Assembly (NCBI GenBank): GCA_023206055.1
Contig: CP065366.1
Span: forward strand, 2,219,385 to 2,243,384
Length of the DNA stretch: 24,000 nt
Origin: Vibrio cyclitrophicus
GTDB taxonomy: Bacteria; Pseudomonadota; Gammaproteobacteria; Enterobacterales; Vibrionaceae
Reading direction: 5' to 3'
This document shows positions 17,522 through 23,183 of the stretch, in pieces; position 1 is the first letter of the stretch, and the number at the start of each line of letters is the position of its first letter. Under the pieces are notes generated by a model. That model was given only the letters and a program-made list of their open reading frames with translations. It did not search any database and was not told the DNA's origin. A program made the translations under genes and the position numbers.

Positions 17522-18757
17522 CTAGTGGCTTCGCAAGATCCCTTCAAGCACATTAAACAACAAGTCGATCTCTTCAATCGAGTTGTAATGCATACAACCA
17601 ATACGCACCACGCCCTGCTCTTCAATACCCAACTGTTTCACCAAACCTAATGCGTAGAAATGTCCGTTCCACACACAGATATTATGTTCACCCAACTTCT
17701 TAGCGATGAACTCTGGAGAGTGGTCATCAAAGGTAATCGCAAACGTTGGGGTTCTTAGGTTCGAATCAAATTCGGTTTTCCCGTAAAGCTTTGCCCCTTC
17801 AAGGTCGGCCAAGCGTTTAAGGAAGTACTCACTCAGTTGGCTTTCATGCTTATTATACAGCGCGTAGCTTTGCTCTAAACGAGAACGCAATGAATCGGCT
17901 GGATCACCTAACTGCGCCAAGTAATCCACCGCCGCAATCACACCGGCAAGGCCTTCAAAGCTTTGTGTTCCTGTTTCAAATCGACCTGGGCCGATATTGG
18001 TTGCAGGCTCAACCTTGTAAGGCTTTAAAGTATGCAGCCATTGAGGCGCAACATAAGCAATGCCAACATGAGGGCCGAAGAACTTATACGCTGAACACGC
18101 TAAGAAATCACAATTCAGTTGCTGAACATCAATCAAGTGATGGGGTGCGTAATGCACGGCATCGACATAAACCTGCGCACCATGCTGATGGGCAAGCTCA
18201 ATAACTTTCGCCATGTCGACAATCGAGCCCGTCGTATTCGAAGCAAACGTCACCGCGACAAGCTTGGTTTTCTCGTTAAGCAGCGACTCAAAGTGCGCCA
18301 TATCCAAACTGCAATCCGACTCGTCTACGCGAACTTGGCGAACAATCGCACCTTTGTCGCCTGCCGCTTGCTGCCAGCTCGAAACATTTGAGTAATGGTC
18401 TAACGCCGTGACGATAACTTCATCGCCCTCTTTCCAATCGCGGCTGATCGCTCGGCTAAGTTGGAAGGTCAGCGATGTCATGTTCGCGCCGAACACAACA
18501 TTGCCAGAAGACTCCGCATTAAGCAGTGCTTGCGCCGCTTCTCGCGCTTGCTGCATTAAGCTTGTGGTCTTTTGGCTAGAAAAATAGTGGCCGCCTAGGT
18601 TTGAATTGAAATGCCCTAGGTATTCGGTCATCGAAGCTAAAACATTCTCTGGTACCTGAGATCCACCAGGCCCATCAAAAAAGGTCACCGGCTTGCCGTT
18701 ATGATATTGGCCTAAAGCACTAAACTGTTGGCGCACATCATTAAGAGTGAAGGACAT
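17522..18757 (-). CDS. Class-V PLP-dependent aminotransferase / cysteine desulfurase-like protein (VC1184-type)
   Basis: About 411 aa. The PLP-lysine motif SAYKFFGPH (compare S-x-H-K-x-x-G-P in NifS/SufS) and the overall fold-type I pattern are present. The ORF opens at 18766, but the ATG at 18757 has AAGGA 8 nt upstream. The subfamily label is from memory. Confidence 0.88.
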   Translation of the reverse strand: MSFTLNDVRQQFSALGQYHNGKPVTFFDGPGGSQVPENVLASMTEYLGHFNSNLGGHYFSSQKTTSLMQQAREAAQALLNAESSGNVVFGANMTSLTFQLSRAISRDWKEGDEVIVTALDHYSNVSSWQQAAGDKGAIVRQVRVDESDCSLDMAHFESLLNEKTKLVAVTFASNTTGSIVDMAKVIELAHQHGAQVYVDAVHYAPHHLIDVQQLNCDFLACSAYKFFGPHVGIAYVAPQWLHTLKPYKVEPATNIGPGRFETGTQSFEGLAGVIAAVDYLAQLGDPADSLRSRLEQSYALYNKHESQLSEYFLKRLADLEGAKLYGKTEFDSNLRTPTFAITFDDHSPEFIAKKLGEHNICVWNGHFYALGLVKQLGIEEQGVVRIGCMHYNSIEEIDLLFNVLEGILRSH

Positions 18758-19400
18758 TGCGCGCATCCTTAGCTGTTAGAACAAACACATCCATATAGCC
18801 CATCTCATCGTGGTCTATGGTACGAATCGGCTGTGCGTTGTGCCAAAGCTTGCTGTCGGCCAGCATTGCGACTTCACCGTCTTCAAGCACTTTTCTAAAG
18901 AATGGTGCTTCATGAGAATCTTGGTACAGCATGATCTCGCCGCCCACAATGTTATGACGGTTAACACCAATTAAAGCGATGTGGTCGAAGCCATCTTGGT
19001 GAACACCTTCTGGCGCAACCTGAGTTTCTTCAAAAATAGCGGCAATGCGGATTTGGTGGATTTCGATTTCTTGTCCGTCTTCAAGCCCATTGGTTTCAAT
19101 AAACAGTTCACACATCTCTTGCATGCCTTCGCTGCTTAGAATTGGTGCTTCAATTGGCTCGAATTGGCGAACAACATCACCTTGAAAGTGATTAATGTCT
19201 TCAGACTGAACAAAGTTATGTTTGTCTAGCTCTACGACTTGTCCATTACTGAATTGAACCACCGAGTACCTTCTCAATCGAAACTGACCATCCGCATGCT
19301 CTGTGCTTGGAAGCTTAGAGAATGACGGTGACAACTCCTCAACTGCGTGGTTACTGAGGTGGGTAATATGTAGGGTATTTTCGTGAGCATGTAACATCAT
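18741..19400 (-). CDS. 2OG-Fe(II) dioxygenase family protein (PF10014-like)
   Basis: It carries an HxD...H facial-triad candidate (GVHQDGFDH ... KLWHNAQP) and resembles what I recall of the 2OG-Fe_Oxy_2 family of amino-acid hydroxylases. The ORF extends to 19493, but ATGATG at 19400 is preceded by AAGGAG. The stop overlaps the downstream gene by 17 nt. Confidence 0.75.
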   Translation of the reverse strand: MMLHAHENTLHITHLSNHAVEELSPSFSKLPSTEHADGQFRLRRYSVVQFSNGQVVELDKHNFVQSEDINHFQGDVVRQFEPIEAPILSSEGMQEMCELFIETNGLEDGQEIEIHQIRIAAIFEETQVAPEGVHQDGFDHIALIGVNRHNIVGGEIMLYQDSHEAPFFRKVLEDGEVAMLADSKLWHNAQPIRTIDHDEMGYMDVFVLTAKDARNVLHS

Positions 19401-19880
19401 CGACTCCTTAATGATTGTTAATTTACTTTCGATATTTAACGTTTTATTTACATAAAGGATACTTGAAGATCTTGTCAAATCAACATTAAACAATCATTTA
19501 TCCCGTCAGATTTAATAATTCAGACACTAAATCCAACTTGAAAATCAAAAGCAGTGTATAACACCAGAATAAAAGATGACCAACTCTTAAAACTAGCACA
19601 CTCCACTAGCTAGTTATAAATCCCTACAAATTTAAATTTAACGATATTATTAACTAGCATGTGATGTTTCATACTATGTCAGCCCTCTCTCTTCAATACG
19701 CCAGTCTCCATGCATGAGTTCAGGCATCACACTCGTCATCATTCATTTCTATGCTTTTGCACAACGAAATACGACCTACCTATCAATTGCCAAGCTATTG
19801 ATTATTTACACAACAATCTGAAATTGGTTAATTTATGAGTACGCCAGAATCCACACGCCTTTGCTTGCGCGTCTGGAACA

Positions 19881-19905
19881 GGTCGAGTTCGGGGGGAACT
19901 CGGCC
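19881..19905. other. GC-rich stem-loop in otherwise AT-rich non-coding DNA
   Basis: TCGAGTTC (19883-19890) / GAACTCGG (19896-19903) around a G5 loop, extendable to GGTCGAGTT / AACTCGGCC. No adjacent T-run on either strand. Confidence 0.4.
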
Positions 19906-20258
19906 GCCCTCAAATGGCTCATTTCTTTTAGAAGAGCAACTTGATAGTTCTTTTAGTATCGAAGATGTTTGAGATGGAATGTTGCGGGTGGGATTTGCTC
20001 AGTAGCGTTTGAAGTCGATGGTGACAATGAATCTAACGTCTAAATAAACGGCAAGTAGTCAAAAACGCCAAGTGTTCTTAGCTAACACGTTTATGCCCCA
20101 TGATTTGGTAACCTTTTACTCATTCACATCGTGTTCATGGGATTTTACCCTACTAGAAGTTATCCATTCTTCTAATACTGTTCGTCGTGAATCCCCCGTG
20201 TTGGATCTCGGGGGTAAATTCGACCAACTATCAACTACTTTGCACTTCAAATAATTGC

Positions 20259-20285
20259 AATTGATTAATTTCCTTTAAATCAATT
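20259..20285. promoter_or_regulatory. Inverted repeat AATTGATT-N11-AATCAATT upstream of the cassette, a possible operator or promoter element
   Basis: 8-bp arms at 20259-20266 and 20278-20285. A CATAAT -10 candidate lies at 20292-20297, 40 nt upstream of the ATG at 20337. Confidence 0.3.
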
Positions 20286-20336
20286 AAGTAGCATAATGCG
20301 CCGCAACAGCATATCAAATTCAAATATGGTAAATTA

Positions 20337-21305
20337 ATGAGCGTTGATACTAAAAAAGTTAAAGTGACTTTTTTTATAACTGGGCAAGATGATAAGAGTA
20401 AAACTCTAAATGCCCCACTACAATTTGGTAGCTTATGGAAAGACCATTTCTCTAAGTCAAAAAAACCAAAGTTGCAAACTCGTGTGTTGACTAACAATTC
20501 GACAACCAAAACATCTACACGTGACCTAGTTCTTTCCATTATTGAATGGGACAAAGATGCTGAATTTTATTTCGGTTATGTCGGTACATTTAGAGACACG
20601 ACGCTACCAACAAAGTTTAATAAAGATACACTGATTGACCAAAATATCGACTTGGACAACCAAGAAGAGATTATGGAAAAAAGTTATTTCTTGTATTACC
20701 CAAAAACAGACATTCTCGTATTCCACCAAAACCACCTTGGCCCTCGTGCCGATGACTTGGGGTATCTGTTATACATGTTTGGAGGTCTAAAAAGAGTACA
20801 TTTTGAACCTATTTGGAAAGACGCAGATATCAAAGCTCTGCTAGAAAATAACAATGTGATCAAAAATGGGTCTTTAACACTTGCTCTACCACGTAACTTC
20901 TCTGAATCAAACTTAGATTTGTCTAATTCTTGGAGCAAAGAGATCATTAGTATGATGTCATCTACTGGTATGAGTCGTCTTGCGATAAACTTTTGGGGTC
21001 GAGCAGGTAGAAAAACTGAGAAAGGCTATCTTAATGATAATATTCGTGCCGGTATTAAGGAGTTAATTAGTACTTATGGCACAAGTCGTAGACTTGGTAA
21101 ATCGGAGCCCGCAATCAAAAAAGCGGAAGTCACTTTAAAAAGTGGTGGAAAGAAACAAACTCTTCTCAACCAAGATCTATCGACTAAACTAGATGTAAAC
21201 GTAGTTAAAGGCTATCCGACATTACAAGGTATGCGTCAGACATTAGTTTTTGCAAAAACGAGGTGCCAAGATACCTTGTTGCAGTACTACCATCAAAAAA
21301 GATAG
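20337..21305 (+). CDS. Uncharacterised 322-aa soluble protein, first gene of the AT-rich cassette
   Basis: A 969-nt uninterrupted ORF in DNA of about 30-37% GC, where random ORFs should be short. The protein is Lys/Asn-rich with no TM segment. I found no Walker, nuclease, DDE, HTH or other motif I can name. Confidence 0.85.
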   Translation: MSVDTKKVKVTFFITGQDDKSKTLNAPLQFGSLWKDHFSKSKKPKLQTRVLTNNSTTKTSTRDLVLSIIEWDKDAEFYFGYVGTFRDTTLPTKFNKDTLIDQNIDLDNQEEIMEKSYFLYYPKTDILVFHQNHLGPRADDLGYLLYMFGGLKRVHFEPIWKDADIKALLENNNVIKNGSLTLALPRNFSESNLDLSNSWSKEIISMMSSTGMSRLAINFWGRAGRKTEKGYLNDNIRAGIKELISTYGTSRRLGKSEPAIKKAEVTLKSGGKKQTLLNQDLSTKLDVNVVKGYPTLQGMRQTLVFAKTRCQDTLLQYYHQKR

Positions 21306-21311
21306 TGAAAA

Positions 21312-21779
21312 ATGATATCAGAATTTAAGTTTAGTAAATCGAAGTTATTTTACAGTGCTGTTGTTATATGCCCTGTACTCGCTTTTACTGCAGAGCCAAC
21401 ACACGACAGAATCATAGCTATAGCTAGCCCATTGGCTACTGTAGCTGGTATTTTGTTTGGATTTGTAATGGCATCGATAACTTTTATTTCTTCTAATTCC
21501 AAAAATCAACTCATCGCCAACATGAAGAGCACCAACTTGTACCACCCGCTGATGGAAAACCTCGCAACCACAGGTTTAGCCTTAATCACGAGTTGTATAT
21601 TTATGGTGTTTTCTATTTTCATGCCCGAAAATGATATGTTTTCTTGGTTTTTGAAGACTAGCTTCAAGCTCAACTGGGACAATTTTTTTCTATTGATTGG
21701 CTTTTACACCTTAATTTACGGTCTCTTTGAGTTCTTATCTACGTGGCGTAAAGTTAACGACGTAGTATGTAAATTATAA
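21312..21779 (+). CDS. Uncharacterised 155-aa integral membrane protein (about 4 TM helices), second gene of the cassette
   Basis: It starts 6 nt after the upstream stop. Hydrophobic segments are LFYSAVVICPVLAFTA, IIAIASPLATVAGILFGFVMASITFI, LATTGLALITSCIFMVFSIFM and FFLLIGFYTLIYGLFEFLSTW. A strong terminator follows immediately. Confidence 0.85.
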   Translation: MISEFKFSKSKLFYSAVVICPVLAFTAEPTHDRIIAIASPLATVAGILFGFVMASITFISSNSKNQLIANMKSTNLYHPLMENLATTGLALITSCIFMVFSIFMPENDMFSWFLKTSFKLNWDNFFLLIGFYTLIYGLFEFLSTWRKVNDVVCKL

Positions 21780-21801
21780 AGCTCCGACCGGAGCTTTTTT
21801 T
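21780..21801 (+). terminator. Intrinsic terminator of the two-gene cassette
   Basis: Stem AGCTCC (21780-21785) / GGAGCT (21790-21795) with loop GACC and a T7 run, starting 1 nt after the stop codon. Confidence 0.9.
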
Positions 21802-22199
21802 ATTTCATGATTTTAGCTAATGCCCTAGCGACTTTTAACAGATGCGTTGATGTCCGGATCTCCAATTCAGATTGAATCCCCCCAACAGTGCAATCCCTGC
21901 CAATGTTTGCTGTGGCCTAACTACTTGGCCTGTAGGCCTACAAGCTTCTTCAAAGTCGATTTCAAACCAACGAGAGGTAAGTTTGATTAAGGGAGTGATA
22001 CCTCATCTATTCAACCGTACACAGCCATAGCCCAACACTCCAAAGCCCCAAAACCTTTACGTGTTTTGACCAATCTTCCAGCCACGAAAACGTTTGTCTC
22101 GATTAAGTTCTAAACTATAACGATTAATTACACTTCTGCCCTTGTTTACACTTTTATTGCCTCCATATTTTCCATACAATCCTAAGCGATTATAAATAA

Positions 22200-23183
<984 letters not shown>

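Follow-up and report, generated by a model that had tools for sequence, protein, structure and literature searches.

Two genes upstream of trxB in Vibrio cyclitrophicus, which we call A and B, are the subject of this article. They lie in a 24,000-nucleotide stretch of contig CP065366.1 (GenBank assembly GCA_023206055.1, positions 2,219,385 to 2,243,384 of the forward strand), referred to below as the window, whose numbering we use throughout. The cassette they form is, in our judgement, probably a highly divergent RexAB-type phage-exclusion (abortive infection) module, acquired horizontally into a defence hotspot upstream of trxB. An initial annotation, made from the sequence alone, had proposed an undescribed defence module built from a soluble component and a small membrane effector. 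That architecture is borne out by the 322-residue A and the 155-residue, four-helix B. The defence reading also stands, on context: it is the best one because of the foreign base composition, the hypervariable slot, the pairing of a soluble with a membrane protein, and carriage on mobile elements near restriction-modification (R-M) and nuclease genes. What falls is the word undescribed. The family-level matches of A to DUF6731 and RexA, and of B to RexB, suggest that the cassette is most likely a remote RexAB-type member and not an undescribed kind of system. The computational support covers the anatomy of the cassette, its foreign composition, the hotspot, the pairing of A with B, mobile carriage, and remote homology to RexA and, more tentatively, to RexB.

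The cassette itself has three parts:

20337..21305, plus strand: gene A, for a 322-residue soluble, basic RexA-like protein, placed by its profiles in a divergent branch of the DUF6731 superfamily.
21312..21779, plus strand: gene B, for a 155-residue RexB-like four-helix membrane protein, the putative effector.
21778..21804, plus strand: intrinsic terminator at the operon end, AAAGCTCCG-ACCG-GAGCTTT plus a T-run.

The two open reading frames (ORFs) are co-oriented, with the 6-nt gap originally read between them, and share the one terminator. Its hairpin (21778..21797) has an 8-bp stem with four GC pairs and a 4-nt loop, and a T-run follows. The terminator is strong, as claimed, but it does not begin 1 nt past the stop; it takes in the final two bases of the B stop codon. 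The start of A, MSVDTKKVKVTFF, agrees with the family consensus MxxxxKxVKVTFFITGQ. Both ORFs are intact and keep every family-invariant residue, 26 in A and 9 in B. The ORF-free DNA on the 5' side measures the 843 bp first given, and that on the 3' side 444 bp (21780..22223) instead of about 420 bp. No Rfam family was found in 19300..22300. At 20260-20286, 50-77 nt before the start codon of A, AATTGATT ... AATCAATT form an inverted repeat of 8 bp without a mismatch, its arms 11 nt apart; it may be an operator or, in DNA this rich in AT, a product of chance.

The cassette is compositionally foreign, which hand counts had already indicated. Its G+C content (GC) is 0.368, against a mean of 0.460 (standard deviation 0.019, minimum 0.428) for the 15 other long ORFs in the window, and no other stretch of the same length, 1443 nt, has as low a GC anywhere in the 24 kb.

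The case for RexA is made by families. Against the Pfam model DUF6731 (PF20505), A itself scores 15.9 bits (E=0.0095), below the 27-bit gathering threshold. An exhaustive search with an A profile brought in 278 representatives at E<=1e-3 (clusters at 50% identity). We aligned 112 of these as wider relatives and counted separately a close family of 37. DUF6731 is matched by 102 of the 112 (best 3.5e-33) and by nine of the 37 (best 1.7e-10), and at the level of sequence profiles A is a divergent branch of the DUF6731 superfamily. A profile of that superfamily was then compared by hhalign with one built from 28 aligned RexA sequences. The two align over 253 collinear columns, covering RexA positions 2-272 of 283, with E=1.3e-5 and a probability of 80.5%. 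The score of 43.9 compares with at most 22.1 in 30 column-shuffled controls (z=14 against these) and with 18.0 when the target is reversed. The close A family on its own aligns with RexA over 75 columns (E=0.002), in a core motif ending G-P-x3-D-L. Acidic residues, F-L/Y-F/Y, D-x-I/L-x-F and G-P-x3-D-L make up the motif common to DUF6731 and RexA. By profile, the DUF6731 superfamily is a remote, near full-length homolog of RexA. The curated RexA models catch very little of this, matching one of the 112 wider relatives in Pfam (2.3e-4) and one of the 37 close ones in PADLOC (0.011). The PADLOC model PDC-M67A matches four close and five wider relatives, the best at 3.3e-6. The Pfam domain AIPR_N (abortive-infection phage resistance N-terminal domain) turned up weakly in four of the 37 close relatives, with a best E of 0.0011.

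Structure prediction adds a marginal signal. The AlphaFold2 (AF2) model of A has a mean confidence (pLDDT) of 83.9, and its top 16 Foldseek matches in the PDB are RdgC together with CENP-N/Chl4 or CENP-L/Iml3. These are the fold relatives named for RexA in the paper describing its structure (PMC11077077). Phage RdgC proteins were also among the matches in BFVD. A has an isoelectric point (pI) of 9.56 and no hydrophobic segment, and the basic pI is compatible with DNA binding. Searches of PDB sequences with A, B and the A-family profiles gave nothing meaningful, only MuSK, NorB, Hcp2 and eIF2-alpha at E>0.01.

Protein B brings a second, more tentative tie to Rex. Its AF2 model (pLDDT 82.2) has helices at residues 9-25, 31-61, 77-103 and 122-154. 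Hydrophobicity is strong in three of them and moderate in one. The first helix passes the hydropathy threshold in homologs, and four transmembrane helices, as in the initial annotation, are plausible. The PADLOC RexB model is matched by 10 of 24 members of the B family (best 1.6e-5) and by the partners of distant DUF6731 genes (2.9e-5 and 4.6e-5). In hhalign the B family aligns with a profile of five RexB sequences at E=1e-4 and a probability of 57.5%, over 56 columns of what is a membrane protein; the score stands 8.3 standard deviations (z) above shuffles, and the reversed target scores 14.1. The positions made equivalent are the end of transmembrane helix 1 (TM1), a conserved His/Arg loop and TM2. 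PDC-M67B matches B of the window at E=0.024 and five of its 24 relatives, with a best value of 0.0097. The loop between TM2 and TM3 is the most conserved soluble stretch of B. Among viral structures, the best match of B comes from the same uncultured phage as the best match of A, and the third best is a 165-residue protein of phage Sbash, unconfirmed as gp31. Matches of B to GntP, FtsX, Cas8b and KwaB we treated as composition noise.

The two genes travel together. Both have counterparts among phage protein families (A in phrog_7651 at 8.6e-65, B in phrog_8552 at 1.2e-29), and a search of 5.8 billion proteins turned up only 36 A clusters and 22 B clusters, whose sources are Vibrio, Aeromonas, Shewanella and enterobacterial phages. 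Many of the A and B matches lie on common contigs with adjacent locus tags. In all 10 independent loci that we examined, an A homolog is followed by a B homolog at a distance of -1 to +23 nt. Relatives ride on five kinds of mobile element. In the lambdoid phage cdtI, and likewise in three E. coli relatives, the pair sits on the opposite strand in the interval from antiterminator Q to the lysis genes, which in lambdoid phages is a classic moron slot. In a PM2-like Vibrio prophage it directly follows the integrase, and in a V. cholerae Tn7-like transposon it sits next to a type III R-M system. It is also found at the ends of two integrated filamentous phages (inoviruses), in V. fluvialis and V. 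vulnificus, once beside a PLD-family nuclease gene. In both inovirus-borne copies a 122-residue ORF with no Pfam match lies directly downstream of B on the opposite strand (L030 9443-9811 and L031 9456-9824, minus strand). The window has no such ORF; it may encode a regulator of the phage or be a third gene that goes with the pair. The E. coli version, which PGAP calls 'DUF6731 family protein', is present in 25 out of 5,426 complete genomes. Scanning contigs with the close-family A profile gave one viral contig with the pair in IMG/VR and no confirmed close relative among 185,579 species-representative genomes.

Farther out in the superfamily, the gene order of lambda itself reappears. Pseudomonas phage AUS531phi and a Mu-like prophage contig each have a Peptidase_S24 CI-type repressor gene, then a DUF6731 gene, then a small membrane gene; lambda and four other rexAB loci have cI-rexA-rexB. 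Three metagenome contigs (L017-L019) look different. There a 288-residue DUF6731 gene, adjoining transposase fragments and a gene for a 1126-residue protein, is followed after 185 nt by an 86-residue ORF with a weak 4TM/SLATT-like match. This locus may be a variant or degraded pair.

A further line of evidence is where the cassette sits. We took ten sibling contigs with a TrxB 100% identical to that of the window and compared them with it by blastn. The features that matter here are:

19916..22060 (approximate), no strand assigned: strain-specific islet, variable cargo between conserved flanks, delimited by blastn against the sibling loci.
18741..19397, minus strand: left flank gene, 2OG-Fe(II) oxygenase (PF10014), 218 residues as called in the siblings.
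22224..23183, plus strand: right flank gene trxB, thioredoxin reductase, followed by cydDC-type ABC genes.
21939..21991, no strand assigned: remnant of about 50 bp, the 3' end of a DUF6575 gene, with 83-87% blastn identity to sibling loci L007, L008, L009 and L015.

In all ten siblings the genes for the aminotransferase and the 2OG-Fe oxygenase are retained to the left and trxB with the cydDC-type ABC genes to the right, while the genes in between differ. Homology on the left stops at 19913-19972; on the right it restarts at 22050-22107, mostly around 22061-22073. This leaves an islet of 2.1 kb with a GC of 0.381, and parts of both ORF-free flanks are conserved in sibling strains. PADLOC found in the sibling cargos a Lamassu system (LmuA 2.7e-17, LmuB 8e-62), AbiL (6.5e-57) and PD-Lambda-1 (1.6e-112), and also an LmuB-like ABC ATPase. 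The initial annotation had suspected a variable locus from the synteny of this block in V. cholerae. Splendidus-clade genomes strongly confirm that the locus is variable, and among vibrios of that clade the 2OG-oxygenase/trxB slot forms a clean hotspot for defence systems. As for the cassette, A is 100% identical to a Vibrio echinoideorum protein, and the exact A protein was found on only one other contig, with the layout unchanged.

The islet also preserves some history. A DUF6575 gene adjoins trxB in at least five sibling strains, and the relic of one at 21939..21991 suggests that the RexAB-like cassette took the place of an earlier cargo through recombination. Within the window we saw no convincing direct repeats or att-like sites around the cassette. 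A segment of 37-48 bp to the right of the islet, upstream of trxB (22074-22120), recurs with 85-89% identity where the cargo begins on the left in two siblings (L013 2026-2062 and L014 1792-1839), so that the cargo there is bracketed by direct repeats. The window showed no such copy on the left. The segment may be a recombination or att-like site behind the turnover of cargo.

Two further observations concern the slot. The oxygenase ORF, called mechanically, spans 18741-19493 (250 residues, starting with TTG), and 26 nt of it lie within the end of the aminotransferase ORF; its true start is probably near 19397, given the 218-residue call in sibling genomes, and by the same call the true gap upstream of the cassette is nearer 940 bp. 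Cargo without a PADLOC match fills four stretches of the siblings (L006 3031-5422, L010 3220-5173, L012 3790-4308 and L015 1408-5039). It comprises a pair of 357 and 438 residues, a trio of ParA-like, 153-residue and DUF5677 proteins, a 172-residue AbiLi partner, and a set of Transgly, 274-residue and CoiA-like nuclease proteins. Their location in the hotspot makes them candidates for further defence systems.

How, then, might such a module work? DNA binding, activation of B by A, membrane damage and phage exclusion are all features that we infer from lambda RexAB, Sbash gp30/31 and the Pseudomonas putida system RexABpp. By that analogy A, basic and soluble, would have two domains folded as in the RdgC/RexA class, and would dimerise and bind DNA. 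It would sense a replication or recombination intermediate of the phage, or a phage protein, and once activated would engage the conserved cytoplasmic TM2-TM3 loop of B. B, in the inner membrane, would then depolarise or permeabilise that membrane. ATP would drop, growth would stop and the infection would be aborted. The 6-nt spacing of the genes would hold the ratio of the two proteins fixed, as matters in lambda Rex and RexABpp.

A number of results weigh against a RexAB-type module, several of them from the Pfam and PADLOC scans and the predicted-structure searches that the initial annotation had proposed. For A those scans gave only the sub-threshold DUF6731 match and no DUF4868. It has no match at E<=1 to the Pfam or PADLOC RexA model (PF15969) and none in PADLOC as a whole, PDC-M67A included. 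B aligns with PADLOC RexB collinearly, but at E=0.024 the match is weak and not significant. The tie of either window protein to Rex is transitive, by way of family profiles, and the B-RexB alignment spans just 56 to 76 columns in a class of protein prone to composition-driven matches. Both AF2 models are confident, but the RdgC/CENP-N matches of A are marginal (E 3.6e-3 to 6e-2, TM-score 0.2-0.33) and lambda RexA (8TWQ, which is also in BFVD) is not in its top 50 Foldseek matches. The islet contains no CI-type repressor, a typical though not universal neighbour of rexAB (in Sbash it is displaced). A simple consensus scan found no plus-strand sigma-70 promoter upstream of A. Finally, the roles of the two proteins are reversed in Butters gp30/31, and the direction of action in the Vibrio pair is uncertain.

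That last point opens onto two related ideas. One is that DUF6731 and its four-helix partner are a large, so far unrecognised branch of the Rex superfamily that has spread beyond lambdoid immunity regions and perhaps works differently from lambda Rex. For instance, an RdgC-like ring of A may clamp phage DNA and block replication or recombination, with B as a membrane sensor or anchor. We consider this doubtful but well worth keeping in view. The other, which we think quite unlikely, is a Rex-superfamily defence pair that acts by another route or with its roles reversed, either like Butters or like Kiwa, with a membrane sensor and a DNA-binding effector. In the reversed version A would be a toxic or antiviral DNA clamp of the RdgC type that blocks phage replication or recombination, and B would do no more than sequester or sense it at the membrane. 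The predicted RdgC-like fold of A and its pI of 9.56 fit such a clamp, RdgC and RexA both bind DNA non-specifically (PMC11077077), Butters offers a precedent among Rex-like systems, and some DUF6731 genes have atypical partners, such as the 86-residue ORF of L017. However, a 2026 paper counts only five RexAB-like systems described experimentally, and in four of them the membrane protein is the effector. B is moreover strictly co-inherited, and its conserved transmembrane helices and TM2-TM3 loop resemble the essential loop of Sbash gp31.

We give a low probability to an accessory pair of mobile elements whose main role is not anti-phage, left here as a stranded passenger or a decaying remnant. 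Its roles could be tuning of lysis and lysogeny (a lytic bias like that of RexA), protection from ClpXP (reported for RexB) or an addiction module. RexA does act on the lambda bistable switch without needing RexB, most homologs of the pair are prophage-borne, no prophage, integrase or repressor accompanies the pair in the window, and the remnant of an earlier cargo lies right beside it. A decaying passenger is nonetheless hard to square with intact ORFs that retain all their family-invariant residues, or with a slot otherwise occupied by bona fide defence systems; and a role in a prophage switch makes no sense for the copy in non-phage Tn7 cargo by an R-M system.

Very improbable, in our view, is a new defence system unrelated to Rex whose profile similarity is convergent or driven by composition. 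The direct hidden Markov model matches of the window proteins to RexA and RexB are not significant, and RexA itself is missing from the Foldseek list, as such a system would have it. Against it stand a near full-length A-RexA profile score 14 standard deviations above shuffles, concordant and independent RexB signals for the partner protein, and the repressor-A-B synteny common to distant members.

A relative of Kiwa has only the faintest chance. Kiwa, too, is a two-gene defence system that pairs a small multi-transmembrane protein with a soluble protein of about 300 residues, with kwaA (membrane) upstream of kwaB. One homolog of A, P0023, even carries the NCBI name 'DUF4868 domain-containing protein', a label that our Pfam and PADLOC scans did not reproduce. 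DUF4868/KwaB is matched by neither A nor any of its 37 close and 112 wider relatives in those scans, the sole KwaB match (E=0.021) is spurious and falls on B, the membrane protein, all 10 pair loci open with the soluble gene, the reverse of Kiwa, and a literature search found no paper tying DUF4868 to RexA, or KwaB/DUF4868 to RdgC. We rejected the identity on the missing match and the reversed order. The initial annotation had already doubted Kiwa on gene order and size, rightly. The same order and sizes it had found odd are, however, those of rexA-rexB. In RexAB-type pairs a soluble protein of about 280-370 residues precedes a four-transmembrane one of about 140-165, ranges into which A and B fall.

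If the pair is indeed RexAB-type, abortive infection of this kind extends to marine Vibrio, and Rex gains carriers to which it had not been linked before: inoviruses, a PM2-like prophage, Tn7-like cargo and a chromosomal hotspot. A working annotation would also follow for the Pfam family DUF6731, to which no function is assigned and which the PADLOC RexA model does not catch. Covariation and structural work on how a RexA-like sensor signals to a RexB-like effector would gain hundreds of diverse A-B pairs. Should the DNA-clamp branch prove right instead, the Vibrio pair would be a tractable route to a 70-year-old question, what Rex proteins sense. The unannotated cargos of the 2OG-oxygenase/trxB hotspot, meanwhile, could be mined for further systems.

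Several known systems invite comparison. Among solved structures, RdgC, CENP-N/Chl4 and CENP-L/Iml3 come closest to the A model, though marginally, and they belong to the RexA fold class; A has no sequence similarity to them, and RdgC is a housekeeping modulator of recombination without a membrane partner. DUF6731 and PDC-M67 are closer. Most relatives found with the A profile are DUF6731 proteins, and some relatives of A and B match PDC-M67A and PDC-M67B, whereas A of the window falls below the DUF6731 cut-off and has no PDC-M67A match. PDC-M67 we take to be a candidate, so far putative, defence system in PADLOC. DUF6731 has no functional annotation in Pfam, and our literature search found no paper that mentions it.

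The actinobacteriophage systems Sbash gp30/gp31, CarolAnn gp44/gp43 and Butters gp30/gp31 are likewise prophage-expressed pairs of a soluble and a four-transmembrane protein. In Sbash gp31 the central cytoplasmic loop is essential (PMC6426596), and it corresponds to the conserved TM2-TM3 loop of B. Their soluble proteins are larger, 337-372 residues, and are reported with DUF4747 (PMC6426596), a domain not seen in Pfam scans of the close and wider A relatives.

Lambda RexA/RexB (PF15969/PF15968) shares more: adjacent, co-oriented genes with the soluble protein first and a four-helix protein of about 145-155 residues second, remote homology at the profile level (more tentative for B than for A), an A model with marginal matches to the RdgC fold class, and, in distant DUF6731 members, a repressor-A-B order like cI-rexA-rexB. 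The differences are that the window pair has no direct sequence match at curated thresholds, that RexA has 279 residues to the 322 of A, that the Vibrio pair occupies a chromosomal islet away from any cI, and that its close relatives turn up in the Q-to-lysis moron slot, at inovirus ends, in a PM2-like prophage and in Tn7 cargo.

The best functional precedent for the Vibrio pair is RexABpp of P. putida (PP_5643/PP_5644), in which the soluble protein binds DNA and a four-transmembrane partner damages the membrane once triggered (Sci Rep 2026, PMC12894663). RexABpp belongs to a cryptic prophage, with a CI-like repressor nearby, and has been tested experimentally, and in these respects it differs from our pair. 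Like it, RexABpp is a RexAB-type pair that could be found only through sensitive profile and structure methods.

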